A DNA stretch of 64,000 nucleotides from Myxococcota bacterium. GTDB taxonomy: Bacteria; Myxococcota_A; Polyangia; Nannocystales; Nannocystaceae. The notes under the pieces were generated by a model that searched no databases, was not told where the DNA came from, and saw only the letters and a program-made list of their open reading frames with translations. Below are positions 28,540 through 51,713 of the stretch, one piece after another (the stretch's first letter is position 1; every line of letters starts with the position of its first letter). The DNA is taken from positions 320,001 to 384,000 of the forward strand of contig JBCCHT010000001.1 of assembly GCA_039028615.1 (NCBI GenBank), given 5' to 3'. A program made the translations under genes and the position numbers.

Positions 28540-28642
28540 CGCCCAGCGTCCACCAGGCTAGAACCGAGACCGCCGACGCACCACTCCCCTTGCGGGGGGG
28601 CCACCACTCCGGGCCTCGACCGTCACTGGTACCGTAGCCAAC

Positions 28643-29680
28643 ATGAGCACCACCATGATCCAAGGCATAGACGTCAGCGATGCCCAAGGCACCATCGACT
28701 ACTCCGCGCTCAGCGGAGCAGGGTTTCGCTTCTGCATCGTCAAGGCGACCGAGGGTGCGGACTACCAGAGCAGCCGTTGGGTCTCCAATATGGAGGCGAT
28801 AGCTCAGCTCGACGCGGGTACCAATTTCTTCGCCGGGGCCTATCACTTTGGCCGCCCCGACAACCGCAGCGGGCAATCGGGCGGTGAGACCGAGGGCAAG
28901 TGGTTCAGCCAGGTCCTCAAACAAACCGCCGCGAGCGTGGGCTTTTCGCTCACCGAGAATTTCATCGAGCCCGTGCTCGACATGGAGAAGTACAACGAAG
29001 ACGGCGCGGAGCTGAACAACGCCTGGATTCAGGGGTTTCTCAACGTGCTCCAACAGGAGACGGGCCGCAAGGGCATGATTTATACGGGCCCCAGCTACTG
29101 GCGCTATCAACAGGGCAACACCGAGCAGTTCGCCCAAGCCGGTATCCCGCTATGGGAGGTCTCCTACAGCAGCCATGGCGCCGATCCCTCCGCCACCCCA
29201 CCTCGTTTGCCCACCGATACATCCAAATCAGTGTGGGACGCTACTTTATGGCAATGGAGCGGAGGCGGGGATTTCAATCACTATGGGACCGTCCCCGGGG
29301 TCCCCAGTGGGGTGGCGGATGTGGACCGGGTCATGGGTGACGAGTCCACGCTCATGACGCTCGCTGCGGCCGGCGGCTCCAGCTCGACCGGAAGTCAAAC
29401 TGGGGGTTCCACGCCACAGTGGAACACTCTGCCCGAAAACGACCTGCGCGATTTGAGAGGCCAGCACAGCAGCTTCACCGCCCGCGTACAGGGCCTGCTC
29501 CTTTCACAAGATTACGGACCCCATGGGCTCGTTGCCTCGAGTACCGGTCGACCCGATGGCATCAGTGGAGACAGTACCGAATCGGCACTGAGCTCGTTCA
29601 AGGGCAAGGTCGGTCTACCCGCCAACACCATGGTGGACCAAGAGACATGGTGGCAGCTCGTTCAGCATGGTCTCGATTGA
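28643..29680 (+). CDS. GH25 lysozyme with C-terminal peptidoglycan-binding-like domain
   Basis: GIDVS, IVKATEG, GAYHF, PVLDME, IYTG, LWQWS and ADVD; then VQGLL...DGISG..T..AL..F; no evident signal peptide. Confidence 0.92.
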   Translation: MSTTMIQGIDVSDAQGTIDYSALSGAGFRFCIVKATEGADYQSSRWVSNMEAIAQLDAGTNFFAGAYHFGRPDNRSGQSGGETEGKWFSQVLKQTAASVGFSLTENFIEPVLDMEKYNEDGAELNNAWIQGFLNVLQQETGRKGMIYTGPSYWRYQQGNTEQFAQAGIPLWEVSYSSHGADPSATPPRLPTDTSKSVWDATLWQWSGGGDFNHYGTVPGVPSGVADVDRVMGDESTLMTLAAAGGSSSTGSQTGGSTPQWNTLPENDLRDLRGQHSSFTARVQGLLLSQDYGPHGLVASSTGRPDGISGDSTESALSSFKGKVGLPANTMVDQETWWQLVQHGLD

Positions 29681-30017
29681 AAGGCGATGTAATCGGGCCC
29701 GAAAGACGTAGAAGGGCCGAGCAAAGACGCGCACAACCATCGTCGTGAAAGAACGCGAAGCAAGGGTCCTGGCGCGAGGCTGAAACGCAGGGCCCTTGCA
29801 GCGCGAAGGAGGATGCACGCCCGCGGCGAAGCGGTACGTCGAGGGCTACGAGGTTTTGTGATCCGTGCGGGCACGAGGGTCACTCCCTCGAAGGTGAACC
29901 ACCCGTTTGCACGAGCTCGACTCGCCGAAGTCATCGCGACGATGGCGAGTCGCGGAATCGGTCATCGACACTCGATGACGTCGCTCGCTGCACGCCAATC
30001 ACCCGTCGGATCGTGGT

Positions 30018-30041
30018 TCACATTCCTATCCGTCGGGCGTC
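30018..30041 (+). promoter_or_regulatory. ECF-type promoter motif TCACA-N15-CGTC upstream of the ECF sigma gene
   Basis: TCACA ttcctatccgtcggg CGTC ag. Confidence 0.75.
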
Positions 30042-30159
30042 AGCACATGTACTCTCAACGCCCGAGACGAGGAAGCCGACGTGTTGGTCGGGTCCCGTCT
30101 CGCGCTGGGTTCGCTCGCCCTCGGGCGTATTGAGTGGTCGCCGACCGGGTGCATGTTCA

Positions 30160-30792
30160 ATGATCACTGATGTCGCAACTCCTGCCTGGGCCGAGGCACC
30201 GACCCAACGCGAACAAGCGCGTCGCAAACGGGCCCTACGTAGGGAAAGGCGACGGAATTCGCGGAAAGAGACGGTCGAGCCCTCCGACCGTTGGCGTGCC
30301 TGGATCGACAATCGAGACATGCTCTACCGCCGCTGTCTCGGCTGGACCAACGGCAATATCACCGAGACCGAAGACCTGCTCGGACAACTGCTCATGCGAC
30401 TCCTTCGCGTCGAGCCTTCCGAGTTTGAACAGGTCAAGTCACCGCGCGCCTGGATGACTCGCATCCTCCGGCACCTGTATGTCGACTTGGTCCGCGGCAA
30501 CTCACGTGCCCACGCCCATGACCTCGAAGTCGAACGCATGCTCCACGGTGGTGGCGGCGGCGACCCGGCCAACGAGGTCTGGCGCGGAGAGCTTTCCGAA
30601 GCGCTCCAATGTGCCATCGACGAACTTCCCTCCTCGCTGCGCGAGCCTCTCATTCAGCGTCATATCGACGGGCTCGGCTACCAACAAATCGCGAGCTGTC
30701 ACAAAATTACCGTTCCCACGGCTCGCAAGCGCTGCCAGCTGGCTCGTGACCGCATTCGGCAGTCGCTCAAGAACACTCTGTCACCGACCTGA
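30160..30792 (+). CDS. ECF sigma-70 factor (candidate activator of the reb region)
   Basis: LYRRCLGWTNGNITETEDLL, PRAWMTRILRHLYVD, AIDELPSSLRE and YQQIA...TARKR. Confidence 0.88.
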   Translation: MITDVATPAWAEAPTQREQARRKRALRRERRRNSRKETVEPSDRWRAWIDNRDMLYRRCLGWTNGNITETEDLLGQLLMRLLRVEPSEFEQVKSPRAWMTRILRHLYVDLVRGNSRAHAHDLEVERMLHGGGGGDPANEVWRGELSEALQCAIDELPSSLREPLIQRHIDGLGYQQIASCHKITVPTARKRCQLARDRIRQSLKNTLSPT

Positions 30793-30798
30793 GGGCAC

Positions 30799-31989
30799 AT
30801 GAGCAACATCCGCGTAACGCTGGCCATTCACTGGGAAGGTCGTCACCTCGACGGCGTCAAGCACTTCGCACAAGACCGCAAGCGCCTGATCCCGGGAATC
30901 CCCGTCACTCACTTCGTCTCGGCCGCCTACTTTGCCCGCGGCGGTGACATCGAGGAAATCGTCAAAGCCATGCTCCCGGCGTTCGAGAGCAATGACGAAA
31001 TCGCGCTGCACGTGCCCGCCTGGCAGAGCATTCGCGGGGCGAGGCACGAGCCGAGCCGCTCGGTCATCGTCGGTGACGACCCCGAGCTGGTCGTCGAGTA
31101 CCCCGGCATCACGGCGCAGCCCGACCGCGGCTACACCTACCCGATTTCGGCGTACGAGAAGCCGTCGATCGAGTCCTTCATCGTCACCTCCAAGCTGCTG
31201 CTGCGGCCCCTGCTGCAGGCGGTGGTGCTGCGGCGCGGGCTGAACATCGAACGAGTACTGCGAGGCATCCGAGCCGGCCACGGCATGGCCTCCGACGTGT
31301 TCTTGGTCGCCGCCTGCAACTCCGGCTTCAAGTACGACGCGTCGGGGATGGACGCGGTGTGGGCCCGCGACTCGGCCGACCGCGCCGAAGCGGAGGCCAA
31401 GCGAGGCGAGCAACTCTTCGCTCCGCTATGGCGCCATTGGGCCGACCTTTGGGGCTCGACCGAACAGAACGAGCCGCACCTCAGCAACCACGGCATGCGA
31501 GCAGGCACGGGGGGCGCGGGCATCAACGCCAGCACGCAGCCCTTCTTCATCGCTCGCGCCGGCGGCTCGCAGCTGCTCGAGCTGCCGGTCAATGGCGGGG
31601 TCGTGCCCCCGGCGAGCCCGCAGCACGTCGCCGAGCTGCTCACCAATGCGCTCGAGTCTCCCCCGGGAGTCCCGCGGATCGTGAGCATCGCCCTGCGCCA
31701 GGAGACGGCCGAGCACAGCCTCGACGCACTGATGGCGGTCGAGGCCCTGCACTCCCAGCGCATCCGGTGGACCACCAACGTCGACCTGCTCGAGGCGTTG
31801 CTCGGCAAGCCGGCCATCGCCGAGCCCGAGCCCCAGCGCCCCTTCCAAGTCATCCGCGAGCAGATGGCCAAGCACCTCCCCATCAACGTTCCGCTCGCGC
31901 AGCACGGCGCACCTCCGCAGGCGCCGGCCGGGCCCGTCGCCCCGCCCGTCGTGATTCCGAGCATTCAGGTTCCGCAGATCAAGACCTGA
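30799..31989 (+). CDS. Polysaccharide deacetylase (NodB/CE4)-like protein, metal motifs degenerate
   Basis: VTLAIHWEG, PVTHFVS, EIALHVPAW, IRAG, GFKYDAS and LLELPVN. Confidence 0.55.
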   Translation: MSNIRVTLAIHWEGRHLDGVKHFAQDRKRLIPGIPVTHFVSAAYFARGGDIEEIVKAMLPAFESNDEIALHVPAWQSIRGARHEPSRSVIVGDDPELVVEYPGITAQPDRGYTYPISAYEKPSIESFIVTSKLLLRPLLQAVVLRRGLNIERVLRGIRAGHGMASDVFLVAACNSGFKYDASGMDAVWARDSADRAEAEAKRGEQLFAPLWRHWADLWGSTEQNEPHLSNHGMRAGTGGAGINASTQPFFIARAGGSQLLELPVNGGVVPPASPQHVAELLTNALESPPGVPRIVSIALRQETAEHSLDALMAVEALHSQRIRWTTNVDLLEALLGKPAIAEPEPQRPFQVIREQMAKHLPINVPLAQHGAPPQAPAGPVAPPVVIPSIQVPQIKT

Positions 31990-35971: not shown

Positions 35972-37516
35972 TCAGCCCACGCTGGCCGATGCGCCCTCTA
36001 CCGCGCCCGCGTCCATCGGGCTGCACTCGCTCGGTGCATGGCAACACCGAGGCGACGCGGGGACCACGATGCCGCGCTCGCACATCGACGTGAAGTCGTT
36101 GCGCACCGCCTGCGCCAAAAAGTGCGACGAATCCCCGAACGGCACGAAGGACTCCGGCACCTCGATCGTCGTCGTGGACAGGATCCAGTTGTGAGGCTGC
36201 TTGGCCCACCGCTCCGGGGCCCCCGTGGGGTACATCGATGCGACGGGCCGTCCCGCTTGCTCGAACAGATCGAGCCACGCCTTCTGCCCCTCGCTGCCCA
36301 GCGTGATGATGGTGTTGGCGAGCACCAGCTCTGCGGACTGGACCACGCGAGCGAGGAAGCCCGGCTCGCTGAGCAGCGGCGGAGGCTCGGGCACGCCGGT
36401 GAAGACGTCGAGGAGCACGAAGTCGTAGTGCTGCCCTCCCGACTCGAACACGTCGCGTGCGTCCGCCTGCACGATCTCCAGCCGCCCTTGCCGACGCAGT
36501 CGAGCCAGCCGCGGAAAGTACTTCTGCGCCATGTCGATGAGTGCGCCGTCGATCTCGACCACACGCAGGGTCATCTCGGGGAAGTTGCTCAACAACGAGA
36601 TCGCTCCCGCGCCGCTGCCCAAGCCGAGCATCAAGCCGTGCCCCTTCGGGTGACGACACCCCGCGAGCAACCACCCGGTCGTGAAGGGGCTGTAGGCGAA
36701 GGGGCCCGGCTGGGGCTGGTCGTCGTCGGAGCTCAGGTACATCGCCCCCTGGCACTGCTTGCCGATGAACAGGGCCCGCATGTCCTCGTCCTCGAGCACC
36801 CGCAGCACGTCGAAGGTCCCTTCCGCCTTGCACAGCTCGCGCGCCACCGATCCCGGCGGCGCATTGTCTCCCCCCGACTGACGCAGGCGCGCCATGCAAA
36901 AGCGCGCCTCCTCGTGCCGACCGAACTTGCGCAGCAGCAGCCCTCGGTTGAGCCACGCGTTGGCCAGCTGAGGATGCACCGCCAGCGCGCGCTCGTAGTG
37001 CTCCAGGGCCTCGCTCGCGTCCCCCATGCGCTGACGGGCATAGCCGGCATTGAAGTGGCACTCCGGGCGATCGGGATAGCTCCTCGCGAGCGCTTCGGCC
37101 GAGATCACCGCTTCCGCGTCGTCGCCCCGGTGCAGCAGGCACAGCGTGTGCGAGAGCCCCTGCTCGAGCTCGGGCGGCGGCAGCAGGGTCTCGACCTCAC
37201 TGAGCGCCTGTACGGCCGGCATGCACTCGTGGTCCGCCTCGCGCAGCAGATCGTTGAGCACCACGAAGATCGGCATCGACAGGCCACACGAGCACGTGTG
37301 AGCGACCGTCGAGTACACCAAGGGCCCCAGCTCGTGACCGACCGGTCCCTCCTTCCAGCGACTCGCGAATCCGTCATCGATCCGCCCGCACGCCGGACAG
37401 GTATGATGCACCAGCATCTCCGCCAGCTGCTGCGAAGACGACGGCTGATAGGCCCCACGTAGGGAATAGCCCTGATCGATGGGGCGCGACTCGAGGATGG
37501 AATCGGACCACTTCAC
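35972..37516 (-). CDS. Cys-motif + TPR + spermidine-synthase-like methyltransferase
   Basis: CPAC...CSC, TPRs (HFNAG...ALAVHP..ANAWLNRG), LGLGSGAG, VEIDG, ADA and DFVLLDVF. Confidence 0.8.
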   Translation of the reverse strand: MKWSDSILESRPIDQGYSLRGAYQPSSSQQLAEMLVHHTCPACGRIDDGFASRWKEGPVGHELGPLVYSTVAHTCSCGLSMPIFVVLNDLLREADHECMPAVQALSEVETLLPPPELEQGLSHTLCLLHRGDDAEAVISAEALARSYPDRPECHFNAGYARQRMGDASEALEHYERALAVHPQLANAWLNRGLLLRKFGRHEEARFCMARLRQSGGDNAPPGSVARELCKAEGTFDVLRVLEDEDMRALFIGKQCQGAMYLSSDDDQPQPGPFAYSPFTTGWLLAGCRHPKGHGLMLGLGSGAGAISLLSNFPEMTLRVVEIDGALIDMAQKYFPRLARLRRQGRLEIVQADARDVFESGGQHYDFVLLDVFTGVPEPPPLLSEPGFLARVVQSAELVLANTIITLGSEGQKAWLDLFEQAGRPVASMYPTGAPERWAKQPHNWILSTTTIEVPESFVPFGDSSHFLAQAVRNDFTSMCERGIVVPASPRCCHAPSECSPMDAGAVEGASASVG

Positions 37517-37524: not shown

Positions 37525-37579
37525 GACGCGCAACGGCCCTCATCGTGAAGGTTCTTCACAGCACCCGTGCCGGGTCGTC
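37525..37579. promoter_or_regulatory. Back-to-back TCAC(A/G)-N15-CGTC promoter motifs
   Basis: Plus: TCACA(37556)-N15-CGTC(37576). Minus: TCACG(37548)-N15-CGTC(37528). Confidence 0.7.
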
Positions 37580-38074: not shown

Positions 38075-38587
38075 CTACTCTTGCGGGGCTGGTGCTGGCG
38101 CGGGTGCAGGAGCCGGCGCGGGTGCAGGTGCTGGCGCGGGTGCAGGGGCTGGCGCCGGTGCAGGGGCTGGCGCGGGTGCAGGAGCTGGCGCGGGTGCAGG
38201 AGCTGGCGCGGGTGCAGGAGCCGGCGCGGGTGCAGGGGCGGGCGCGGGTGCGGGTGCGGGTGCGGGCTCCGGCTCGACCGGCGAGAGGGTCAAGATGCCC
38301 TCGACCTGGATCTTCGTGCAGCAACAGCACTGCGGATTGACGTAGAGTTCCGCCATCGCCACCCGATCGGTGGCCGTGGTGGTGGAGTAGTAGATCGCCT
38401 GCGCAAGGCTGAAGATGCCGTCTTCCACCGCCAGCGAGTCGTCTTCGTCGCTGTTGCGCGACCGCGGGTACACCACTTCGGCGGTCGTGCCATCGTCGTT
38501 GACGACGTTGAACTGGAGGCGGTTGTAGCGTCGGGCGCTCGCGATCAGGCCGGTGATCTGGATCTTCTTCGTGACCATGTCGTGCAT
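38075..38587 (-). CDS. Hypothetical protein with CCCC motif and long (Pro-Ala)n tail
   Basis: GC3-rich ORF; NPQCCCCTK; about 30 PA dipeptides. Confidence 0.8.
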   Translation of the reverse strand: MHDMVTKKIQITGLIASARRYNRLQFNVVNDDGTTAEVVYPRSRNSDEDDSLAVEDGIFSLAQAIYYSTTTATDRVAMAELYVNPQCCCCTKIQVEGILTLSPVEPEPAPAPAPAPAPAPAPAPAPAPAPAPAPAPAPAPAPAPAPAPAPAPAPAPAPAPAPAPAPAPQE

Positions 38588-39302: not shown

Positions 39303-39326
39303 GACGACGGTCTCCGCGGTTTGTGA
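39303..39326 (-). promoter_or_regulatory. ECF-type promoter motif TCACA-N15-CGTC
   Basis: Minus strand: TCACA aaccgcggagaccgt CGTC ag. Confidence 0.7.
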
Positions 39327-39336
39327 AGGAGTTGTG

Positions 39337-39753: not shown

Positions 39754-39764
39754 ACGAGTCCGGC

Positions 39765-40888: not shown

Positions 40889-41538
40889 AGCGCACCTCCA
40901 AAATCTGCCATCCTCGACAGATTGCCGAGAACTCTATCTCCATCGCGACCTAATATCCTAAGGCGCCTAGCCAACAGATTTCCCGCCGGCTCCGGCGTTG
41001 CAGCAACGCGAAAATCCTCACCGACCCCCCCGGTGTCGGGCTCCACGACGGGCTCGGGCTCTTCCTCAATTAGAGTCCCCGGCAAACCCGCATGTGCATT
41101 TGACGAAGTCTCACGCAGACCCAAGAGGTGCGGATCCGCGAACAGGTTCTCTACATTCGCGTTTTCACCCAGAGAGCCATCGGGAAGCCCCTCAATACTC
41201 TCGACCGAGCGAAAGAGAACCTCGAACGTCCGATCGCCGATCGCGATTCTCACCGAGACCCCCTCATCCACGAAGCTGACTTCGATGTTGCCAAGCGATG
41301 GTGGCATTGCTGCGCTCGACATGCTCCAGGCTGTCGCGAATTCGCTCGAGGTCATACCGGTTGCCGGTAGGAAAGCTAGGTCGACATTGCCTCCCGTGAG
41401 TGAGTTGGGTAGCGGCGCTGGAACGTCGACGCTATTGGTTTGCGTAGTAGAGAAGGGTTCAAACCCCTCCCCCATTTGACCGAGAATGAGCCCGTTTTCG
41501 TCTACGCCCACAAACAGATCGTATTTCAACATCACCAT
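40885..41538 (-). CDS. Hypothetical protein
   Basis: 217-aa acidic ORF just downstream of the kinase; AT-richer. Confidence 0.65.
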   Translation of the reverse strand: MVMLKYDLFVGVDENGLILGQMGEGFEPFSTTQTNSVDVPAPLPNSLTGGNVDLAFLPATGMTSSEFATAWSMSSAAMPPSLGNIEVSFVDEGVSVRIAIGDRTFEVLFRSVESIEGLPDGSLGENANVENLFADPHLLGLRETSSNAHAGLPGTLIEEEPEPVVEPDTGGVGEDFRVAATPEPAGNLLARRLRILGRDGDRVLGNLSRMADFGGAL

Positions 41539-41555
41539 CGCATCTCACCGAGTCC

Positions 41556-44228
41556 TTACTTTCTCTGAGGTTGTTTCGTCATCGCTCTCAAATTCTGGAG
41601 ACTCTGCATCCGCCCCGACTTCTCGAACCACGACGCTGCATGGTCGAGCTCGGAACGACACTCCGTCGCCCGACCCAACTCGAGGAGCACACGGCATCGG
41701 GCGCTCGTGTTGTAAGCCAAGTTAGCCTCGTTCCCCGGGCTCATCTCAAGTAGCAGTTCGTGCTCGCGCCCGAGCTGCACCAGTGCCTCTTCGTAGCGTC
41801 CTACGCCCATCAATGCGAACCCGTAGTAGCGCCGCATGGACTGCCGTGCCCCTCGCTGCTGTCGGTCATGGGGTAGTTCACGAAGTGCTGCCCCCGCTCT
41901 TTCGCAGTAAGGCAACGCCGACGCATAGTCCCCCTTTCGCACGACGATTTCGCACTGTCGCCCCAGTGAGAACGCAGCGATCCGTGAGAAACGAATATCC
42001 CCGACTTGTGGAACCGCGAGTTCCTCGACCTTTCGATACTGGGCCATTGCGGGCTCCAAACGACCCGATTTCAAATACACCCGCCCCAGGCGGAGTTCGT
42101 CATGAACAGTGCTCGAGTGTTTGGGTCCATAGGTCCGATGCCTCAGCTCCAGGTTGTGCAAATACGAAGCGATCGCGTCATCGTACCGTTTCAAGTCGCA
42201 TAGCGCCGCGGCGTGATTGGACCGTGCGATAAGGGCCGCCAAGCTCTGATGTCCCTGACGAACGGAGAGCAACTCGTAGGCCCTTTGGGCGTGCCCGGCC
42301 GCCGCCTCTAAGTTCCGAAGTCGGAACTCCAGGTTCGACATCGCGGAGTGGTACTGCCCGGCGACCTCGCTGTACACCGCCCCCGCCCGCTGGAGCTTGA
42401 CCCTCCCCATCTTCCCGTAGCGCACGGCATCGTCGAGCTCGCCCCACATCAAGGTCACAACATCGATCAGTTCGGCGTAGGCCTCGGCCGCCAGCAGGTC
42501 ATCCCCGAGACGCTCGGCGAGCAGTGCAGACTCCTCGAGATGTTTCACCGCCGCTTCGGGGTCGTTGAAGAGAATCTCGAGCTTGCCGATCGAGAACGAG
42601 ACCTGAGCTGCAACGACGACATCCGAGGCTTTCTCCGCCCGCCCCCGCAGCGCCCGCGCTCGCGTCAGCGCCCGCTCGTCATCGCCTTCGAGCTGCAGCC
42701 GCCGCACCGCTTCGAGTTCCTCGATGAGCTCCGCGCTGGCCGAGCCGAACACGGGCCGCCCTTGCGGAGCGACGCACAGCTGCGGCGGGTGCAGGTTCCC
42801 AAAGGCTCCCTCGAGACCCTCCGCAGACTCCCGGCTCCGCACCACCTCGGCCGTCGTGTTGAACTCTCTGGCCCCCTGCCCCAAGCATGCGAGCGCCTGA
42901 GTGTGAGCGGCTCCAACGCTCTCGCCTCGTTGGGCAGCGCGGCAAAGCCCCTCGACCGTCTGTGTCCACGATTCGCTGTACCGCGCAGCGTTGTCGTCGA
43001 CGATGCTCCACGGGCTGACGGAAACGGCCGCGGCGGACTCGGGGGCACGAGGCGTCCACGCCTCGGGCGACCACCGGATCGCTAGCTCCTGCCCGGGCTC
43101 CAAACACGGGTCGACGGGAACCTCGACTTCGATCTTCTGCGCGCTCGCCACGAACGCCCAGGTGATGGCCGCGAGACTCACCGCGCTCGCCGTCAACCAG
43201 GGCCACCATGGCCGACGCGGCGTCAACTGAGCGATGAGTTCGTCCATCGCCCCGAAGCGATCGGAGGGCTGCAACGACAGCCCGCGGACGAGCGCGGCGA
43301 AGACCCGCGCCGAGCCCTTGAAGTTGGCCGGGCGACTGCCGAGCCCCACCGCGACGCGCTGTTGGTACTCGTCCGCGTCGCGACTCGCACCGAAGGGCAG
43401 GGTCCCCGTCAGCGCCTCGAACAGCGCCACGCAAAAGGAGAACTGATCGCTCTTCGCGGTGGTCGCCTTGCCGCGTAGTTGCTCGGGCGCGCAGTAGCCG
43501 GGAGTCAGGCCGACCGTGGCGCTACCTTCAATGGTCATCCCCACCATACGCCTCGGAGCGGTGGTCACCTGATCCAAGGCTTCTTTGGCCGCCGAGTCCA
43601 TCTCCTCCGCCTGCGCGAGGGCCAAACCGAAGTCCGCGACCTTGACCTCTCCCTCGCGACCGAGCAACACGTTGTGGGGCTTGAAGTCACGATGCACGAT
43701 GCCTTCGCGATGTGCCGCACCGAGGCCTCGCGCCGCATCGACGTATCGGGTGACGATCTCGTCGGCGCTCCGCTCGACCTTCCGCTGCCATTGCATGAAC
43801 GTCGAGCCTTCGACGTACTCCATGACCACGAAGGCCTGCGATCCGCCCATGCCCAGATCCACATCGTGGACCTGCACCACGTTCGGATGGGAGAGACGGG
43901 CGAGCGCAACCCCCTCTCGCACGAGGCGACGGCGCTGGCGAGGACTGGGCACGTTGACGATCTTCAGAGCGACCTGCCGCTCGAGCCAAGTATCCCGTGC
44001 CTCGAGTACGGTCCCCATCGCTCCGCGACCAGCGTGCCGAACGACCTCGTACCGATCGAGAAAGCGTTGCGGCGCCCCCTCCGTGGTGACTTCCTCACCG
44101 TGGACCTGTCGCTGCACCGCGGCCTGGACCTGCTCGAGCGCAAGCAGATCTGCCGCGTGATGCGGTAGTTCGCAGCCACGCGCGTCCGCGGAAGCCGGCT
44201 CCGACTCCCAAGTTGATTCGGTATTCAT
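41556..44228 (-). CDS. Ser/Thr protein kinase with TPR repeats
   Basis: GRGAMGTV, VALK, HRDFKPHN, DFGLA, TPGYCAPE, TM segment and TPRs. Confidence 0.93.
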   Translation of the reverse strand: MNTESTWESEPASADARGCELPHHAADLLALEQVQAAVQRQVHGEEVTTEGAPQRFLDRYEVVRHAGRGAMGTVLEARDTWLERQVALKIVNVPSPRQRRRLVREGVALARLSHPNVVQVHDVDLGMGGSQAFVVMEYVEGSTFMQWQRKVERSADEIVTRYVDAARGLGAAHREGIVHRDFKPHNVLLGREGEVKVADFGLALAQAEEMDSAAKEALDQVTTAPRRMVGMTIEGSATVGLTPGYCAPEQLRGKATTAKSDQFSFCVALFEALTGTLPFGASRDADEYQQRVAVGLGSRPANFKGSARVFAALVRGLSLQPSDRFGAMDELIAQLTPRRPWWPWLTASAVSLAAITWAFVASAQKIEVEVPVDPCLEPGQELAIRWSPEAWTPRAPESAAAVSVSPWSIVDDNAARYSESWTQTVEGLCRAAQRGESVGAAHTQALACLGQGAREFNTTAEVVRSRESAEGLEGAFGNLHPPQLCVAPQGRPVFGSASAELIEELEAVRRLQLEGDDERALTRARALRGRAEKASDVVVAAQVSFSIGKLEILFNDPEAAVKHLEESALLAERLGDDLLAAEAYAELIDVVTLMWGELDDAVRYGKMGRVKLQRAGAVYSEVAGQYHSAMSNLEFRLRNLEAAAGHAQRAYELLSVRQGHQSLAALIARSNHAAALCDLKRYDDAIASYLHNLELRHRTYGPKHSSTVHDELRLGRVYLKSGRLEPAMAQYRKVEELAVPQVGDIRFSRIAAFSLGRQCEIVVRKGDYASALPYCERAGAALRELPHDRQQRGARQSMRRYYGFALMGVGRYEEALVQLGREHELLLEMSPGNEANLAYNTSARCRVLLELGRATECRSELDHAASWFEKSGRMQSLQNLRAMTKQPQRK

Positions 44229-44242
44229 CAGAGGGTCTCAGG

Positions 44243-44896
44243 TCAAAGAAGTCGACGTGCCATGGTCGACAACAACTCGGCTAGCTCGTCGTCGCTGGCA
44301 ATTTCCCGACGCTTGGACGTCTCGCGCTCGCTGACGTTGCCGTAGGCGACCACGAGCTTCTTCTTGGCCATGCGAAGACGACTGGAAATGGTGCCCAAAG
44401 GCGCCCCCATGGCATCAGCAACCTCTTCTTGGCGCATGCCCTGCCAATACTTGAGCTGAATGACAGTCTGCTGGTCGATGGAAAGCTCGTCCATGGCTAG
44501 CAGCAAGATGTCGACGTGTTCCTGCATCTTGATCAAGGTGGAGGGGCCGGGGGAGAGGTCGGCCAGGGGTACGGATGCGATGTCTTCGACATCGCAGAAC
44601 GCCGATTTCCGCCGATAGAACCCGACCAGCATGTAACGAGCAATGCCGAATAGATAGGCGGCGAAACTTGCGACGTGGTCGAGGCCACGCCCTCGTCGTT
44701 GCTCCGCACACGCGACATAGGTCGCTTGCACGAGGTCTTGGACGTCGTGCTCGGAGGAGAGCTTGGACCGAAAATATCTCTGCAATGGTAGGAAGTGTCG
44801 CTTCATCAGCACATTGCCCGCCACGACGTCACCATTGCGCCACAGTGACAGCAACTCCTCGTCAGCAAGGGCCGTCTGTGCCTCCCCTCTTCCCAT
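44243..44896 (-). CDS. ECF sigma-70 factor
   Basis: DEELLSLWRNGD, DLVQATY, YLFGIAR and GTISSRLR; similar to 17968-18585. Confidence 0.92.
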   Translation of the reverse strand: MGRGEAQTALADEELLSLWRNGDVVAGNVLMKRHFLPLQRYFRSKLSSEHDVQDLVQATYVACAEQRRGRGLDHVASFAAYLFGIARYMLVGFYRRKSAFCDVEDIASVPLADLSPGPSTLIKMQEHVDILLLAMDELSIDQQTVIQLKYWQGMRQEEVADAMGAPLGTISSRLRMAKKKLVVAYGNVSERETSKRREIASDDELAELLSTMARRLL

Positions 44897-45147
44897 GTTC
44901 ACCGCCGATACCACGCGAGCAGGCTAGCATGATGGTCATCGACCGCTCGATCGTGAACATCGTTCGTCGTGAAGTTTATGCGAAATAAAAATTTGTCAGA
45001 CAGGACTACGCGGCGGCGTACATGCCACGCAGACCAATGTCGAAAGAGACACCAACTGCACTCGCGCCGACGATGGTTCGGGCGAGAGCCTCCGGTCGAC
45101 CCGGGACAGCCGAATCGACCGGAGTCAGTGCGACGTTGCGTCACACG

Positions 45148-45552
45148 CTACGAAATGGGCATGAACTCGAGCCATACCAACCTCGCCTCGATCCACTGCC
45201 AATCGGGACCCGAGGCCTGATCGTACTCGTAGCTGTATCCGTCTTCCATGCGGACGTCGGAGATGACGAGGTCGGCGGTCTCGCCCGAGTCGAGCCAGAC
45301 GGTGACCAGCAGATCACCCTCGAAGGGCTCGGACTCCACGTAGTGGACCCCGATACGGGCTTCGTCGGTGTTGTTGGCGTTCGAGGTCTCGACCGTACGT
45401 ACACCACACGTGGTGCAGATGGGGTCGGGATACTCGGGGTCGTCGTCCGGGCCGACGACCTCGGTGGGAATGGGGTCCGACGCTTGGGCAGTGCCCGGCG
45501 TCATGAGACCGAGGGGCAGCATCAGCAGCCCCGCAAGGGACTTCAGTTCCAT
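45148..45552 (-). CDS. Small secreted protein
   Basis: Signal peptide ending AQA-S; acidic mature part with CTTC. Confidence 0.7.
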   Translation of the reverse strand: MELKSLAGLLMLPLGLMTPGTAQASDPIPTEVVGPDDDPEYPDPICTTCGVRTVETSNANNTDEARIGVHYVESEPFEGDLLVTVWLDSGETADLVISDVRMEDGYSYEYDQASGPDWQWIEARLVWLEFMPIS

Positions 45553-45767
45553 CGCGATGTTCCAGTCGATGCGCAAACGGGAAGACCCGGGGGCCATCGA
45601 TGCGCAGGTCGACGAACCGGGTGGAAGCCGAGCAACGTGACTTCCACTCGGTTAGTGGGCAGGGCGCGGAAACAATTTGATCTCGGGATGACTTTCGTCG
45701 GGCGCGGCCGAGGCTCGATGTGTCATCCTCGGCCAGCGAGTTCACGACCCGCGCCGCGCCCCCAACG

Positions 45768-46523
45768 ATGACCAAGCGAACGCAGCCACGAAGCTGGGTG
45801 GAGCTTCCCCCCAAGACCATCGAGCGCGCACTCGATGGCGATCGAGCCGCATTCGAGGAGGTCTACACGCACTACTCGGGCATCGTCCGGGGTGCGGTCG
45901 CGTCCCGGATTCGCCGCTGGCCATCACTCTCGTCTCAGATGGAAGACATCCTGAGCGACATCTGGGTGCAGCTGCTCGCCGACGACCGCAAGGTCCTGCG
46001 CTACTACGATCCCGACCGCGGACCCTTCGGCTACTTCATCCGGCTCGTCGCGGCTACCAAGGTCTCCACCGTCTTGCGTCGGCAGGCTCGTCGAAGCGGA
46101 GCCGCAGCCACGATCGTCGATCTTCCCGTGGAATACGACGAAGAGATCGAGCGAGTGCTGATGCAGCGCGACTTCATCGAAGCGCTATGGGCCGAGGCCC
46201 AAACCACGCTCAAGGACGTCGACCAACAGCTGCTCACCCAAGTGCTCGTGCTCGGGCGGGAGACCAAGGAAGTCGCGGCCGAGCTCGGGCTCAAGCGAGA
46301 CGCCGCGTACCAGCGCATCAACCGACTTCGGCGTCGCCTCACGCAGATCGCTGAGCGGCTGCTGGCCGACGGCAGTGGCACCCGACGCTCGAGCCCCGAC
46401 TTCGCGGCGGCCGTGCTGATGCAGGCGCTCGTGGTCCTACCCACCCTCACCCTCGGCGCCCCTGGATCCACTGTCGGACGTTGTTTTAATCCCGACGTCA
46501 GCTCCGTGTCCCCGAAGGGCTAA
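45768..46523 (+). CDS. ECF sigma-70 factor
   Basis: GDRAAFEEVY, EDILSDIW, YDPDRGPFGYFIR and EVAAELGL...YQRINRLR. Confidence 0.88.
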   Translation: MTKRTQPRSWVELPPKTIERALDGDRAAFEEVYTHYSGIVRGAVASRIRRWPSLSSQMEDILSDIWVQLLADDRKVLRYYDPDRGPFGYFIRLVAATKVSTVLRRQARRSGAAATIVDLPVEYDEEIERVLMQRDFIEALWAEAQTTLKDVDQQLLTQVLVLGRETKEVAAELGLKRDAAYQRINRLRRRLTQIAERLLADGSGTRRSSPDFAAAVLMQALVVLPTLTLGAPGSTVGRCFNPDVSSVSPKG

Positions 46524-46532
46524 ATACGATCG

Positions 46533-47282
46533 ATGGTGCCCACCGACATTCTCGACGTCCTGGCCGCTCGCCAGACCTTGGCCACGACGCCGCGCGCGTG
46601 GTTCGATGCGGCCGAAGGGGAGATATCGATCGAGCGCGCCAGGGAGCTGGTGGCCGACCGGGAAGACCCTGCGCTCATCGAGCGCTCCGCGGCCCTGTTT
46701 CGCCCGGGAGACCCTCGGATCGAGCAACGACGGCTGCGCATGCTCGTGGGCGAGCACTTCCCCGTCCGTCGTCGTTCGTGGCGACAGCCGCTGCTCATCG
46801 GCGTGAGCCTGGCCGCCGCGCTGCTGTTGGTGCTGAACCTCGGCGATCCAGCCTCACGGGGCCCCGGCTCCGTCGCGTTGGCGCAGTACTCCATCGAGCT
46901 CGAACGCAGCGCCAAGACCCTGCGCGGGGACGAGCCCCCGTCCGTCGCGGTCTTTTTCGCCGACCGTCGGCTCCGAGCCACGCTGCGCCCGTGGACCGCA
47001 ATCACGACCCCCGTCGAAGCGGCGGCGTACGTCTGCGAGGCCGACGGCAGCCTGCGCCCCCTTCCCCTCCAGCCGCGAGCCTCCCACGACGGGGTGATCG
47101 TGGTCGACGACGCGATCGCCGATCTCGGCCTCGGGCTCGGGCTGGTCGATCTGGTGTTCGTCGTCGGCCCTCGCGGCGAGCTCCCCGTCCCCGAAGACTG
47201 CCGCGGCGACGCCCTGTTGCCCTCCCAAGACCATGCTCGAACGATTCGCACCCGCATCGAGATCCAGCCGCCGCCGGGCTAG
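46533..47282 (+). CDS. Single-TM protein, probable anti-sigma factor
   Basis: Lies between the sigma and CHAT genes; TM segment IGVSLAAALLLVL followed by ...TLRG. Confidence 0.6.
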   Translation: MVPTDILDVLAARQTLATTPRAWFDAAEGEISIERARELVADREDPALIERSAALFRPGDPRIEQRRLRMLVGEHFPVRRRSWRQPLLIGVSLAAALLLVLNLGDPASRGPGSVALAQYSIELERSAKTLRGDEPPSVAVFFADRRLRATLRPWTAITTPVEAAAYVCEADGSLRPLPLQPRASHDGVIVVDDAIADLGLGLGLVDLVFVVGPRGELPVPEDCRGDALLPSQDHARTIRTRIEIQPPPG

Positions 47283-49944
47283 CGCTGCGCTGGTCTGCGC
47301 GCTCGTAGCGAGCTGCAGCGGGGCCGAGAGCCCCGAGGCGGGGCCGCGCGCGGTCGACTCGCTCGAAGTCGACTATGGGCACTGCCTGGCCGTTCGCCAC
47401 GCCGAGGTTCCCACCTGCGTGCTCGAGAGCGACTCGCTGCGCCTGTGGCTGCGTCACCCCGATGCGGAGCATGCCACCGTCTACGTCGATGGCGTCGACA
47501 TCGAGCCCTCTCAGTTTCGTCACGAAGAACTCGTGGGTCTGGGCCTTCGGCTCACCCTCCCGGAGTCCGCTCGACACCTCAAGGTCGAAATCGACACCGC
47601 CAGCGGTGCACCCACGGCGTGGGAGCTCGAGCTGTCGCACGACGACCCGAACCCGTTGTTCGCCTCCGTCCGCACCGCCATCGACAAAGACCTCCAAAAG
47701 GGCGACACCGCGGCGGCCATCGCTCGACTCGACGACGTTCGCATCGCCTACCCCAACACCACCGAGACGCTCGATGTCGCGTTCGCGGCCGTGTTCTGGC
47801 TGGCCCGCGACGTCAATGCTCTCCCCCTGGCCGAGACCCTCCTCGACGACTACGCCCCGCTCGCCCGAAAGTCGCCCCAGGGGCGCGCGGAGCTGGCCAT
47901 CAATCGCGGCCTGCTGCACTGGTATCGCGGACGCCTCGACCAGGCCGCCATGGCCTACCGCGAGGCGGCTCAATACGCGCTCCGCTCCGAGGACTCGTAC
48001 CGCCAGATGGCCACGATTCCGATGTACGCCGACATGCTGGCGGAGCTCGGCTATCTCGGCGCAGCGATGCACTGGGTTCGACACACCGAGCGTCGGCTCG
48101 ACAAAGGCTCCAATTCGCCGGAGGTCATCGGGTCCGTGTCCCGCACCTTGGGCTGGATCGGCCTGCTCCTGAACGCCGCCGGTCGCGACGAGTCCGATCC
48201 CGGGCCCCACCTGTACGAAGCACTCGAGATCTTCGGTCCACGGGGCGCGGCACCCCGGCCCAAGAAAGTCGGCGGCGTGCGACTGGGGCTCGCCCGGCTC
48301 GCGCTCGATCGAGCTCGGCCTGGCGAAGCGCTCGCGCAGCTGGAGCAGATCGACCCCAAGAAGATCACGCCCGACGAGTACTCCCACGCCGTCGAGCTCG
48401 AGATTCGGGCGCGGCTCGAAGGCGGCGAGAGCACGCCCGAAATCGAGGCGCTCATCGAAGAATACGAAGACATCGCCTCTCGCTCGCATACCCCTCAGGT
48501 CGCGTGGACGGCCGCCGTCATCCGGGGGCGCCTCGCGGAAGTGGAAGGTCGGGTCGACGACGCGATCGAGCACTATCGCGACGCCGAAGCGCTGCGGGAC
48601 GAGGTCCTCACCCTCACTGTGTTCGGGGCGGGACGAAGCAATGCCGGCGCGCTCGATCCAGAAGCCACGGAGCGCTTGGTCACCCTGCTGCTCGATCGGG
48701 GCCGAGCCGAGGAAGCCCTGTGCACCGCCCGACTCGCCCAGGCGCGCACGGTGCAGACCCTCGTCATGCCCAGCTCGCTCAGCCGAGGCGAGCGGCGCGA
48801 CATCGAGGAGCAGACCCTCGCCTATATCGGGTTGGGCCAGCAGATCCACGACCTGGAGCGCTCCGGCCGTGAGCGCTCCGGCGAGCGGCTCGAGCGAGTG
48901 CGGCGAGAAGCGACCCAGCTGCGCCGAGAGCTCCAGCGCCAGGCCACCGCGCTCACGCTCGCGCGCGCCCAGCTCTCCGGTGGCCTCGAGTGCAGCGACC
49001 TGACGCCGCGGCAGCCGGGCGAGCTCATCGTGGCTCTTTATCCGCAGGGCCCCGACTGGGTGATGTTCGTGCTCGACGACGGCGCGCTGACGGTCCACCC
49101 GCTGGCCACCTCCGGGCGACTGTCGTCGCTGCCCACCGAACAACAGGCTGCGCTGCTCGTCGATCCCATCGCCGACCGTCTGCGAGCCGCCTCCCGGGTC
49201 CGCGTGCTCGCCACGGGCGATGCCAACCACGTCGACGTGCATGCGCTAGGGCTCGACGGCCAGCCCCTGGTCGCTCGCCTCCCCGTGCACTACGCAGCCG
49301 AGCTGCCCTCGAGCACGGCGTCCTCCGCTGTGTCCTCCGATCGACGACACGCGCTGCTGCTGGCCGATCCCACGCGCTCGCTGTGGGCGGCATCGAGCGA
49401 GGTTCGCACCGCGGGCGGGCTGCTGAGCGAAGCGGGGTGGTCGACCTCGCAGCCGAGCGACCCGGGCTCGCTCCTGCAGGTCATCGAAGAGCTCGAGACG
49501 GCCGACCTGTTCCACCACGCCGGACATGCGGACGCCGCCACCCCGACGAACGTGGCGAGCCTGTGGCCTCCCTACCAAGGAGGTGCGCCCGGCTGGCCCT
49601 CGTATCTGCAGCTCGAGCCCCCCGTACAGCTCGCGGTGCACGAGATCCTGCTGCTGTCCCACGCACCCCGCCACGTGGTGCTCAACGCGTGCCGTAGCGG
49701 GGTCGTCGACGTGCAGCACGCGGGCACGAGCCTCGCATTGGCGTTCCTGGCCGCGGGCAGCGAACAGGTCTTGGCCTCGCCCGAAGCCACCGAAGACCTG
49801 CTCGACGCCGAGCTCGGGCAGCGGCTGTACGAAGGCCTGACTCCCGGCGAGCCCCTCGACCTCGCCGTCCAGCTGCACCGGCTCATGGCACGACGCGTCG
49901 CGGCGGGCGACAGTGTGGGGCGACTACGGGTCTGGAGCCGTTGA
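47233..49944 (+). CDS. TPR-CHAT (caspase-like) domain lipoprotein
   Basis: Lipobox VASC, helical repeats, LFHHAGHA and VVLNACRSG dyad, LALAFLAAG. Confidence 0.88.
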   Translation: MLERFAPASRSSRRRASAALVCALVASCSGAESPEAGPRAVDSLEVDYGHCLAVRHAEVPTCVLESDSLRLWLRHPDAEHATVYVDGVDIEPSQFRHEELVGLGLRLTLPESARHLKVEIDTASGAPTAWELELSHDDPNPLFASVRTAIDKDLQKGDTAAAIARLDDVRIAYPNTTETLDVAFAAVFWLARDVNALPLAETLLDDYAPLARKSPQGRAELAINRGLLHWYRGRLDQAAMAYREAAQYALRSEDSYRQMATIPMYADMLAELGYLGAAMHWVRHTERRLDKGSNSPEVIGSVSRTLGWIGLLLNAAGRDESDPGPHLYEALEIFGPRGAAPRPKKVGGVRLGLARLALDRARPGEALAQLEQIDPKKITPDEYSHAVELEIRARLEGGESTPEIEALIEEYEDIASRSHTPQVAWTAAVIRGRLAEVEGRVDDAIEHYRDAEALRDEVLTLTVFGAGRSNAGALDPEATERLVTLLLDRGRAEEALCTARLAQARTVQTLVMPSSLSRGERRDIEEQTLAYIGLGQQIHDLERSGRERSGERLERVRREATQLRRELQRQATALTLARAQLSGGLECSDLTPRQPGELIVALYPQGPDWVMFVLDDGALTVHPLATSGRLSSLPTEQQAALLVDPIADRLRAASRVRVLATGDANHVDVHALGLDGQPLVARLPVHYAAELPSSTASSAVSSDRRHALLLADPTRSLWAASSEVRTAGGLLSEAGWSTSQPSDPGSLLQVIEELETADLFHHAGHADAATPTNVASLWPPYQGGAPGWPSYLQLEPPVQLAVHEILLLSHAPRHVVLNACRSGVVDVQHAGTSLALAFLAAGSEQVLASPEATEDLLDAELGQRLYEGLTPGEPLDLAVQLHRLMARRVAAGDSVGRLRVWSR

Positions 49945-51357
49945 CCGGCTCGACGACGGGCAGTCGTCGCATCCACAGTCACCGATCCCCCGACAACGCC
50001 CCTGCTCGCTGCCCGCCAATACCGCCTCGCGGCGCTGCTCGGCGCCCGGGTGGGTGGGTCCCGCCTCGTCCGAGCCCTGGGCCAGCAAGTCCAAGAGCGG
50101 ATCGAGCGAAGCCCCGAGCGCAGCCACGATCCTCCCCGCGCTGCGGTCGGCCCTCAGCTCGCGCTCGTGACTGGTCTGTGTGCCCGCACCAGACTCCGGC
50201 TCGTCTCGGATGTGACCCCACTCGTGACCGGCGATCCCGCGGATCAGGTCGCGCTGGCAATCCTCGTCGCCGCCACAGATCGCGTCGCTCGCCCGCTGCA
50301 TCCACGCCGGATTGACCAGGACGACGCTGCCCTCCCCTTCGACGTCGCCGACCCCGACGTTCGGCACCTGGTGGCTCTCGAGCACTCGCGGCGCCGGTTT
50401 ACCCTCGAGCACGGCGATGGCCGCGAACTCCCGGGCGAACCGTTCGCCCCAACTCTCGGGCGTGGGCGAGTGGGTCGTGCTCGGCACCTCCACGGACCAG
50501 CCCGGCACGGGCTCCTGCAGCACGGCCGGGCGGAGGCGATGGACTTCACCACGCGATGACAGACCCCATCGAGGTGACGGAGGGCCATCGCAACCCTCCA
50601 CCGTGACGGCATGCCGAGACGGCTGCTCGTGGGCGAAGACCGGCTCGGCCTCGACCATGGCCGGCACCACGATCAGCACCACATCGGGCGACGTCGTCGG
50701 CTCCACTCCGAGCGGATCGAGGTCGAGGTCCGCCTCCACCCACCCATCGATCGGCATTCGAGGTGGAGTCACGACCGGCTCCTCTTCTTCGATCTCCAGG
50801 ATCGCATGCGGCGAGATCGCGACCACCGTCTCGATCGGCGAGTCGGTCGGGACCTCGTCGACGTTCGAGCCCTGCTCCGCTCCAGCCTCTTCGCACCGCG
50901 GGGGGCTCGGAGCCACGACGAGCACCACCTGCGGCCGTACGTACTCGAGCTCCGGCCGAAGCCGAGGCGGCCGGGCCCGGCGATCGGGCGTGCGATCGGA
51001 GCATCGATCCACCGAACGACCTCGCCGATCACTGCCGCGCCGCGGCACCTCCACCACCAGCAGTCGAACCTCGGGAGGCGGCGCCCGGTCGTTGCGCGGC
51101 CGCGACGACACCCGCGGCGTAGTGGCCTCGTCGTTCGCTCGATCGGCCGCGAACGGAGGCTCACGGGGCTCCTCGTCGGCCTTCGGTTCGGTCTCGGTGG
51201 GCTCCTCGGGCTCTTCGGGCTCCACCGGTTCCCGCTCGGCCTCGTCCTTCGACGACGAAGCGGGCGCAACGACACCACGCCCTCGCCGATGCTCCCGGAT
51301 CTGTCGCCGCATTTCGACGATCAGACCGATGACCTCTGGCGACCACGCCTCCCCCAC
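49924..51357 (-). CDS. Pro/Glu-rich protein with C-terminal M48-like metallopeptidase domain
   Basis: IAGHEWGH, ERELRADRSAG and THPGAEQRREAV. Confidence 0.7.
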   Translation of the reverse strand: MGEAWSPEVIGLIVEMRRQIREHRRGRGVVAPASSSKDEAEREPVEPEEPEEPTETEPKADEEPREPPFAADRANDEATTPRVSSRPRNDRAPPPEVRLLVVEVPRRGSDRRGRSVDRCSDRTPDRRARPPRLRPELEYVRPQVVLVVAPSPPRCEEAGAEQGSNVDEVPTDSPIETVVAISPHAILEIEEEEPVVTPPRMPIDGWVEADLDLDPLGVEPTTSPDVVLIVVPAMVEAEPVFAHEQPSRHAVTVEGCDGPPSPRWGLSSRGEVHRLRPAVLQEPVPGWSVEVPSTTHSPTPESWGERFAREFAAIAVLEGKPAPRVLESHQVPNVGVGDVEGEGSVVLVNPAWMQRASDAICGGDEDCQRDLIRGIAGHEWGHIRDEPESGAGTQTSHERELRADRSAGRIVAALGASLDPLLDLLAQGSDEAGPTHPGAEQRREAVLAGSEQGRCRGIGDCGCDDCPSSSRSTAPDP

Positions 51358-51445
51358 CGCTCAGCCCCTCCGGGCGGCCTGATTCGGTCCGACCGGCGAC
51401 GGCATCACGCGGTGGCATTGCGAACCCACCCGGGTCCCCTGTCGA

Positions 51446-51640
51446 TCACGATCCACCTTGGAGATCGTCGATCGTCACGTTGGGCACAAAAACGACCGGA
51501 TTGCCCGGTACGACGATGCGAAACAACATCCCGCCGGGCACGGGCAGCACAAAGACCGCCGGGTCGATGCTCGCGACCGGGTTGCTGGACACCAGCTGGT
51601 TCCAAACGACATCAACCTTGATTTCCGGCTCGTTGATCAT
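51446..51640 (-). CDS. 64-aa hypothetical protein
   Basis: MINEPEIKVDVVWNQLV...LPVPGGMLFRI...VVFVP; ATG 11 nt downstream of the promoter motif. Confidence 0.7.
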   Translation of the reverse strand: MINEPEIKVDVVWNQLVSSNPVASIDPAVFVLPVPGGMLFRIVVPGNPVVFVPNVTIDDLQGGS

Positions 51641-51651
51641 CCCCTACCCAT

Positions 51652-51713
51652 GACGAACCGGGCCCGCCCTTGTGATGCGGGTCGGGGATTCACAACTGGC
51701 GCCCTCCGCCGTC
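51652..51713. promoter_or_regulatory. Divergent pair of TCACA-N15-CGTCAT promoter motifs heading the reb array
   Basis: Minus: TCACA(51675) agggcgggcccggtt CGTCAT. Plus: TCACA(51690) actggcgccctccgc CGTCAT. Confidence 0.78.

Follow-up and report, generated by a model that had tools for sequence, protein, structure and literature searches.

A putative promoter motif linking an ECF237-type sigma factor to R-body (reb) genes in a Myxococcota bacterium

R-bodies are protein ribbons, and their genes (reb) are widespread and usually silent. Recent surveys record neighbouring sigma factors but, in the portions available, leave the sequence that these recognise undefined (PMC13430693, PMC3583457). 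A 64,000-nucleotide stretch of a Myxococcota bacterium (contig JBCCHT010000001.1, positions 320,001 to 384,000; hereafter the window) carries the genome's only reb cluster (51794-55178), an ECF sigma factor gene, and repeated copies of a gapped motif, TCACA-N15-CGTC. The initial annotation took this motif to define a hidden regulon, raising the question of whether it is a promoter and, if so, which sigma factor reads it. The answer given here rests on the motif sites, on their retention at orthologous positions, and on their joint occurrence with one sigma family across phyla: TTCACA-N15/16-CGTC very probably constitutes the -35/-10 promoter of six island units, recognised by the ECF237-type factor of gene 30160-30792, which would co-activate its targets.

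Motif sites in the window and the genome

Five exact copies of TCACA-N15-CGTC occur in the window, as first listed (30018+, 37556+, 39326-, 51675- and 51690+), and all five lie outside likely genes; 39326- falls within a long open frame (38758-39489), in which a conserved GTG at 39294 sets the gene downstream of the site. The proposed back-to-back pairs (37548-/37556+ and 51675-/51690+) were likewise borne out. The -35 element is corrected to TTCACA and the spacer to 15 or 16; an unselected T precedes TCACA at 17 of 18 sites. A matrix built solely from 33 sites of other genomes placed the five window sites at ranks 1, 3, 10, 11 and 16 genome-wide, and a scan for the sigma-70 consensus gave nothing above chance.

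Shuffled windows contain a mean of 0.81 matches, with none of 100 reaching five, and against a genome background of 0.215 per 64 kb the window count has P ~3e-6. Of the 3676 five-plus-four words that the window contains at least five times with a gap of 15, 11 reach a smaller P, so that the single-window count could be a look-elsewhere effect. Genome-wide, spacer 15 yields 46 matches, whereas the remaining spacers between 10 and 21 yield 30-68 each; this is no excess, so the enrichment is a local one. What settles the question is the comparison between genomes; the window count by itself does not.

Such comparison also separated the three near copies. The site at 37548- has orthologous counterparts in the relatives G049, G050 and L010; 28601+ (score 2.6) has none before GH25 in G048 or G050, leaving GH25 without support as a regulon target; and 29861-, despite a score of 13.2, has none in three of three relatives (best 3.6-8.0). 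A further site, 51446+, falls where a small gene ends.

Table 1. Promoter sites and genes of the island, in window coordinates.
Feature	Position	Strand	Remarks
Promoter site TTCACA-N15-CGTC	30017..30041	+	142 nt 5' of ECF start; predicted autoregulatory
ECF sigma factor, 210 aa	30160..30792	+	Pfam sigma70 r2 and r4_2; reb-linked family, matches ECF237
396-aa gene, predicted NodB/polysaccharide-deacetylase-like fold	30799..31989	+	6 nt 3' of ECF stop
TPR and spermidine-synthase-like methyltransferase gene	35972..37516	-	Starts at a GTG 8 nt past CGTC; mRNA predicted leaderless
Promoter site TTCACG-N15-CGTC (one mismatch)	37525..37549	-	Back to back with 37555
Promoter site TTCACA-N15-CGTC	37555..37579	+	5' of LuxR-type gene
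Stand-alone LuxR/GerE-type HTH protein, 112 aa	37594..37932	+	Conserved in G049, G050, L010 and G059
Uncharacterised protein with Pro-Ala tail	38075..38587	-	Downstream of 38758-39294
Uncharacterised 178-aa protein	38758..39294	-	GTG 8 nt after CGTC in 4/4 genomes; predicted leaderless
Promoter site TTCACA-N15-CGTC	39303..39327	-	Top PWM match in genome
Three small conserved island genes	39337..40198	+	39337-39753, 39765-39944, 39941-40198
Inserted block: Ser/Thr kinase, two other ECFs, CHAT protein	40226..49944		Outside regulon
Two uncharacterised genes	49924..51640	-	51446-51640 and 49924-51357; behind 51675 site
Promoter site ATCACA-N15-CGTC	51652..51675	-	Back to back with reb promoter
Promoter site TTCACA-N15-CGTC	51689..51713	+	Heads reb array; kept in G049, G048 and L010
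reb array	51794..55178	+	Six RebB-domain genes (51794, 52675, 53127, 53626, 54132, 54578) and one Reb-like (54825)

Conservation in related islands and across phyla

Orthologous islands retain the sites in G049 (6/6), L010 (5/5 covered), G050 (4/4 covered) and G048 (two). Identity to the window sites is 74/75 for TCACA and 60/60 for CGTC, compared with 84/225 (37%) for the spacer, a comparison that is partly circular, the boxes having been chosen by the motif. Upstream of the sigma gene, where the 30017 site is present in five of five orthologues, an alignment of the five that was not guided by the motif left the boxes as the only invariant blocks. The 37525 site is exact in G049 and reads TTCACG in G050 and L010, and its partner at 37555 is kept in all three, with a spacer of 16 in G050. 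The 39303-39327 site, whose -35 element overlaps GAAGGA, a Shine-Dalgarno-like sequence belonging to the divergent gene 39337, is kept in the same three relatives, and in G059 this gene block is likewise preceded by a site; the 51652-51675 site is kept in G049 and L010. The conserved genes at 39337-40198 are without a motif site of their own.

The motif points towards genes from a distance that suits a start site, and in seven of eight orthologous cases the GTG start is found 8 nt past CGTC. RNA polymerase carrying the 30160 sigma factor would bind the TTCACA/CGTC site and begin transcription ~9 nt after CGTC, which would render the mRNAs of the genes starting at 37516 and 39294 leaderless, with GTG at their 5' ends.

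Beyond the close relatives, 77 reb loci from many phyla were compared. Of the 12 loci from genomes with the sigma family, 11 have the motif ahead of reb genes (7/7 where the sigma gene sits in the locus, 4/5 where the genome carries it elsewhere), as against none of the 65 remaining loci. CGTT was allowed post hoc, after the data had been seen (strict CGTC gives 5/7 and 1/5, or 6/12), and the whole-genome sigma search covered 4 of the 65. Reversed and shifted control patterns gave 0/12. Family loci found blind carry an exact site in 12 of 13, the sole miss being a broken sigma gene (L165) with a decayed site at a distance of 56 nt, the same as in the intact L164; the spacer is 15 or 16 in 19 of 27 exact matches. 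Near-duplicates occur among the loci (L136/L137, L116/L118 and L167-L169). Counting the blind-found loci, the motif stands ahead of reb or sigma genes across unrelated phyla, over a GC range of 36-74%, and tracks the reb-linked sigma family in five groups of phylum or class rank; carriers of both include myxobacteria, proteobacteria and cyanobacteria.

The probable cognate sigma factor and alternative readings

This tracking across phyla supports the initial assignment of 30160-30792 as the cognate factor. Among the genome's 86 ECF-like matches it is the sole member of its family, in which the recognition helix (xRKRxQxAR) is conserved; it also has an Arg-rich N-terminal extension, kept in close orthologues. 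It matches the description of ECF237, a group whose promoters are given as not conserved in the portions of the reference classification available (Casas-Pastor et al. 2021, PMC7826278). As described there, ECF237 genes adjoin several RebB genes and have no anti-sigma factor. Here the protein consists of the sigma70 r2 and r4 domains only, as expected of the group; six RebB matches lie 21 kb away, compared with ~7 kb in G049 and adjacency in G059 and G024; and its neighbours, several of which (30799 included) are of unrecognised family, contain no anti-sigma family in Pfam or NCBIfam. Every close orthologous locus, as well as G059 and G051 but not G024, has the 30799 gene following the ECF gene, and a complex prediction for the two proteins scored 0.21 against a mark of 0.32. 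In keeping with the published description, the collected family contains cyanobacterial proteins extended at the C terminus; a Thalassospira representative, like subgroup s4, carries an N-terminal extension of ~240 aa, with a glutamine amidotransferase encoded at position -3. In the tree, the factor groups with proteins that fit the s4 and s1/s5 descriptions, used as anchors in place of the paper's own accessions: a branch with support 84/99, recovered in 80% of bootstrap trees, sets 15 rows apart. The difference from the published group is the conserved promoter found here before reb genes and, in 16 of 31 family loci, before the sigma gene.

The sites could be real promoters read by another sigma factor, whether ECF41-type or another ECF of the window, an explanation that we consider improbable. 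It draws on the experimentally mapped ECF41 promoter, TGTCACA-n16-CGTC, which is one base different and shares the core TCACA and CGTC, a near-equal spacer and a small, mostly local regulon (Wecke et al. 2012, PMC3426412); on the size of the genome's ECF complement, which includes one ECF41-like gene (C10:184940; 217 bits, below the 323 cut-off); and on a few family sites in Thalassospira and the order of Bordetella that begin GTCACA. However, T rather than ECF41's G precedes TCACA at nearly every site, the spacer is 15 in this genus, and the ECF41-like gene is without a 15/16-spaced site within ~3 kb. The described ECF41 targets are CMD, oxidoreductase or epimerase genes (PMC3426412) as opposed to R-body genes, and a domain search found none of the three among the sigma factor's neighbours. 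The large SnoaL-like C-terminal extension of ECF41 proteins is also missing, the 210-aa protein ending after region 4. As for the three other ECFs of the span (34445-35917, 44243-44914 and 45720-46523), they are missing from the G049, G050 and L010 islands, which keep the sites, as is the whole 40226-49944 block between the same flanking genes; they are thus disfavoured, and the motif follows the reb-linked family instead, standing before none of the 65 reb loci without it.

Less likely still is that TCACA is the half-site of a Crp/Fnr- or LuxR-type dimer, with the back-to-back pairs forming palindromic operators (TGTGA...TCACA). The pair at 37544-37560 reads CGTGA-N7-TCACA, which we take to be close to the CRP site consensus. 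In Azorhizobium and P. aeruginosa, reb genes are indeed under Crp/Fnr-family or cNMP-binding regulators, RebR and RcgA, but the RebR consensus, as given in the portion available, differs (PMC5527310); moreover, the half-site gap varies (7, 7, 6, 8 and 14, 14, 15), partnerless single sites exist (30018, 39326 and most sites in other phyla), and every TCACA retains CGTC 15-16 nt downstream. That the motif is a chance word picked by eye and retained through descent alone, as the 11 better-scoring gapped words and the missing genome-wide excess might suggest, is the remotest reading and is largely refuted by the reb-locus and blind-locus tests, by boxes fixed amid diverged spacers, and by the control patterns.

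Predicted regulon and comparison with known control of reb genes

Read by the 30160 sigma factor, the sites predict as likely targets the sigma gene itself, the reb array, the LuxR-type gene, the TPR-methyltransferase, small uncharacterised genes, and at least two distant operons. The distant operons are a PatA/PatG-like S8 protease operon (C39:82148), adjoined by a paralogue of the 38075-38587 protein, and a 1344-aa HEXXH protein pair (C7:38974); the supposed hidden regulon is mostly local, with only these two distant targets supported. Another distant high-scoring site, C67:13072, was rejected, being missing in four of four orthologues; other high-scoring genome sites are C1:410393, C9:87311, C36:29065, C27:178371, C1:699884, C5:182549 and C23:138666. 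A link to contractile injection systems was likewise discarded, as three sheath genes have no strong site before them, and a literature search for such a link found nothing. The array itself has no internal promoters between reb genes of the kind seen in Thalassospira.

The autoregulation put forward at the outset is predicted here, and does not generalise: 15 of 31 family loci, including all eight cyanobacterial ones checked, have no site before the sigma gene. In this island, that site together with the lack of a recognisable anti-sigma factor may create a positive loop, with an all-or-none ON state of some cells as a possible outcome, and the LuxR-type gene may add a second regulatory tier. 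A bolder reading, offered tentatively and doubtful as a whole, is that the family is a cross-phylum master switch of an anti-predator programme, locking itself on in a minority of cells without an anti-sigma factor and driving R-bodies with recurring partners: the PatA/PatG-like protease operon, the large HEXXH protein, the TPR-methyltransferase, and a second DNA-binding regulator. If so, the motif would mark the long-sought partners of R-bodies in any sigma-bearing genome.

The ECF regulon design is familiar, and the promoter is one base from that of ECF41. For a group whose promoter the reference classification gives as not conserved, a concrete consensus makes the sigma factor testable by reporter assay and R-body induction testable in culturable non-pathogenic hosts such as Thalassospira, which carries seven sites, and enables a search for co-regulated partners. 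It also draws attention to how myxobacteria control R-bodies, a pairing on which a literature search found work on another organism only.

A functional parallel is the reb cluster of P. aeruginosa PA14, in which a cluster-encoded sigma factor, FecI2 (PA14_27690), and a second regulator, RcgA, are needed for reb transcription; expression is stochastic (0.26% of cells), and FecI2 overexpression strongly raises rebB2 (PMC8322103, PMC4362757). The published FecI2 motif is AT-rich and iron-box-like by description. The second regulator is cNMP-binding in PA14, LuxR-type here and AraC-type in L166; a domain search of the island proteins found no cNMP-binding gene. In Azorhizobium caulinodans, reb operon control by PraR/RebR is similarly tight and dedicated, but operates through a repressor and a Crp/Fnr activator at palindromic sites, with no dedicated sigma factor described in the portion available (PMC5527310). 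In Rhodospirillum centenum, the ECF gene RC1_2001 lies two loci from a seven-gene reb operon, and cyst development induces it by ~3 log2 and the reb genes by 4-5.7 log2 (PMC4340629).

The motif in the window and in close relatives

The source genome comprises 12.3 Mb at 68% GC, with the window at C1:320001–384000, and a domain search of the 30–55 kb portion of the window revealed an island with an ECF sigma factor gene, a TPR/spermidine-synthase-like gene, a LuxR-type HTH gene, several unfamiliar genes, three further ECF genes, and the genome’s only reb (R-body) cluster, with six RebB-domain genes and one Reb-like gene. A window scan recovered all five exact copies of TCACA-N15-CGTC where the initial annotation had placed them, versus 0.81 expected from shuffles; the background in the rest of the genome is 0.215 per 64 kb. 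A genome-wide excess was not found (46 matches at spacer 15, 30–68 at other spacers), and the motif's P in the window was bettered by 11 of the 3676 gapped words comparable to it. As these two results weaken the window count, the case must rest on other genomes.

Features of the window and of other contigs (C) of the source genome
Position	Feature	Remarks
27517–28539 (-)	Gene weakly resembling M10/AbsR1	HEXXH motif absent; GC-poor stretch; paralogue on C32
28643–29680	GH25 muramidase	Adjoins island; likewise in G048, G050
30160–30792	ECF sigma factor	Exact site 30018 (+)
32067–33734	Island protein	Long Pro-Ala repeat tail
34445–35917	ECF	Absent from G049, G050, L010
35972–37516	TPR-methyltransferase	
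37594	LuxR-type gene	Exact site 37556 (+)
38075–38587	Island protein	Long Pro-Ala repeat tail
38758–39294	Island gene	Exact site 39326 (-)
39303–39337	-35 box of minus-strand promoter, also Shine-Dalgarno-like GAAGGA of divergent 39337 gene	Overlap kept in G049, largely in G050
39337–39753	Island protein, divergent gene	Long Pro-Ala repeat tail; no site of its own
40.2–49.9 kb	Block with two ECFs	Absent from G049, G050, L010
51640	Genes with a site	Exact site 51675 (-)
51722–51787	21-codon frame ending just ahead of first reb gene	Opens with GTG 8 nt past reb promoter CGTC (exact site 51690, +); GTG shared by L010, not by G049
C39:82148	Distant site	Ahead of S8 protease with PatG domains
C39:82179–85158	PatA/PatG-like proteins	
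C7:38974	Distant site	Ahead of 1344-aa protein with one HEXXH motif
C67:13072	Rejected distant target	Failed orthologue comparison
C9:198877–228497; C15:144519–166767	Contractile-injection-like clusters	No strong sites
C19:147573–149120	Lone sheath gene	No strong site

The 30160 ECF is present in 7 of 73 genomes of the taxonomic family, source genome counted, with 73–74% identity in three of five congeners and 32–38% in three other family genomes. Exact sites precede all six orthologous units in the relative G049, and sites accompany every unit covered in the metagenome contig L010 (5/5) and in G050 (4/4); G048 retains the ECF and reb sites, and L008 the ECF site. When five ECF upstream regions were aligned, the sole invariant runs were GTTCAC-A and CGTC. 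Fifteen orthologous site pairs are identical at 74/75 positions of TCACA, 60/60 of CGTC, 84/225 of the spacer and 43–45% of the flanks; since the motif was used to choose the boxes, it is the spacer and flank values that carry information. The base ahead of TCACA, which was no part of the search pattern, is T in 17 of 18 sites. At the TPR and 39294 genes a GTG lies 8 nt past CGTC in seven of eight cases and 9 nt in the eighth, a spacing that would fit leaderless transcripts beginning at this GTG. The near copies in the initial annotation fared differently: that at 37548 is conserved, and those at 28601 and 29861 are not conserved in relatives. The three other ECFs of the span were dropped as the cognate factor because G049, G050 and L010 lack them.

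The sigma family and associated sites across phyla

Of 86 ECF-like matches in the source genome, only the 30160 sigma belongs to this family, and in the tree a branch with support 84/99 sets fifteen family rows apart. A RebB search of species genomes confirmed 488 stretches among the matches listed, and the best 80 of these supplied 77 loci; the sigma family lies inside the stretch in seven, and elsewhere in the genome in five more, all cyanobacterial. Using TCACA-N15/16-CGT(C/T), 5–400 nt ahead of a reb gene, with CGTT admitted only after cyanobacterial sites had been seen, a site was found in 7/7 of the former, in 4/5 of the latter, whose genomes were picked for the sigma check partly because sites were already visible, and in 0/65 others. 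The strict CGTC version gave 5/7, 1/5 and 0/65, and reversed and shifted control patterns 0/12. Whole-genome searches of four of the 65 other genomes found the family in none, and no site stood ahead of reb in any of 5 + 9 reb clusters without an intact sigma nearby. Thalassospira loci each carry seven exact sites, ahead of sigma and of five reb units. Three filamentous cyanobacteria (G470, G471, G475) hold about 6–9 copies of the family per genome.

In a blind test, the family profile A4 matched 3/351 genomes in the Thalassolituus order, 4/301 in the Bordetella order and, in the class containing Thalassospira (401 genomes), 6 that were new. An exact site was present in 12 of these 13 loci; five of the loci contain reb genes within the stretch, each with such a site upstream of them (via an AraC gene in L166). 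In 11 loci, two near-duplicates excluded, 19 of 27 exact matches had spacer 15 or 16. The sole miss, L165, has a broken sigma gene and a decayed site, at a 56-nt distance equal to that in the intact L164. No reb genes accompany the sigma in the Bordetella-order stretches L167–L169 and L161; in L167 a 1043-aa gene follows the sigma and the sites, as do a tail-collar-domain gene and several paralogue-like genes of ~210 aa.

With starts set by eye, the sigma gene itself has a site ahead of it in only 16 of 31 loci, and none of the eight cyanobacterial loci among them has one. These counts could explain why the published ECF237 analysis (PMC7826278) saw no conserved promoter.

Candidate distant targets and neighbouring genes

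When a matrix was built from 33 sites, all of them outside the source genome, the five window sites ranked 1, 3, 10, 11 and 16 in the source genome. Sequence comparison supports the assignment of two distant sites, on C39 and C7, to the predicted regulon. Orthologues of the C39 target carry sites in G048 and G049, no counterpart turned up in G046, G047 or G050, and a paralogue of the 38075–38587 gene lies directly upstream of it. The C7 target has a G050 orthologue with a site at equal distance, and in G051 the C7-type gene pair sits within the sigma locus, behind a site.

PatA/PatG-like proteins adjoin reb genes in sigma-less loci, and follow sites in a cyanobacterial locus that has the sigma and lacks reb genes; the loci of these two kinds are L064, L065, L088/L096, L102, L103 and L175. 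TPR-methyltransferase homologues occur near reb clusters in Oscillatoria (L119 15166–16512), with a site about 1.1 kb upstream on the same strand, and in G613 (L254 3495–4952). GH25 genes lie within 10 kb of reb in 12 sigma-less loci of other phyla (L067, L072, L073, L074, L076, L082, L084, L087, L088, L089, L123, L251); the muramidase is a possible lysis partner for R-body release.

Proposed mechanism and comparison with known systems

The sites are conserved and tied to a sigma family whose alignment reveals a conserved recognition helix. The 30160-type sigma would recognise them, transcription would start near +9, the sigma would feed back positively on itself with no anti-sigma involved, and the LuxR-type gene would provide a second regulatory tier. 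The observation is confirmed, and we are highly confident in the initial reading, an ECF promoter with 30160–30792 as cognate factor, which is supported with corrections to parts of it.

The promoter and regulon are newly defined, the ECF group itself being known and unstudied; a literature search found no published report of this promoter for a reb-linked sigma. A 2020 study reportedly predicted ECF promoters from amino-acid rules. The FecI2 motif logo of PMC4362757 could bear on the novelty of the promoter.

The family resembles ECF237, as judged from that group’s description. The entry (PMC7826278) lists RebB neighbours, no anti-sigma and C-terminal extensions in two subgroups, matched by the tails of cyanobacterial members, and for subgroup s4 an N-terminus extended by about 220 aa and a glutamine amidotransferase at -3, both features of the Thalassospira member. 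Two further systems offer analogies to the island: in PA14, reb expression, which occurs in 0.26% of cells, requires both a sigma encoded by the cluster and a second regulator (PMC8322103), and the R. centenum reb operon is induced together with an ECF gene adjacent to it (PMC4340629).
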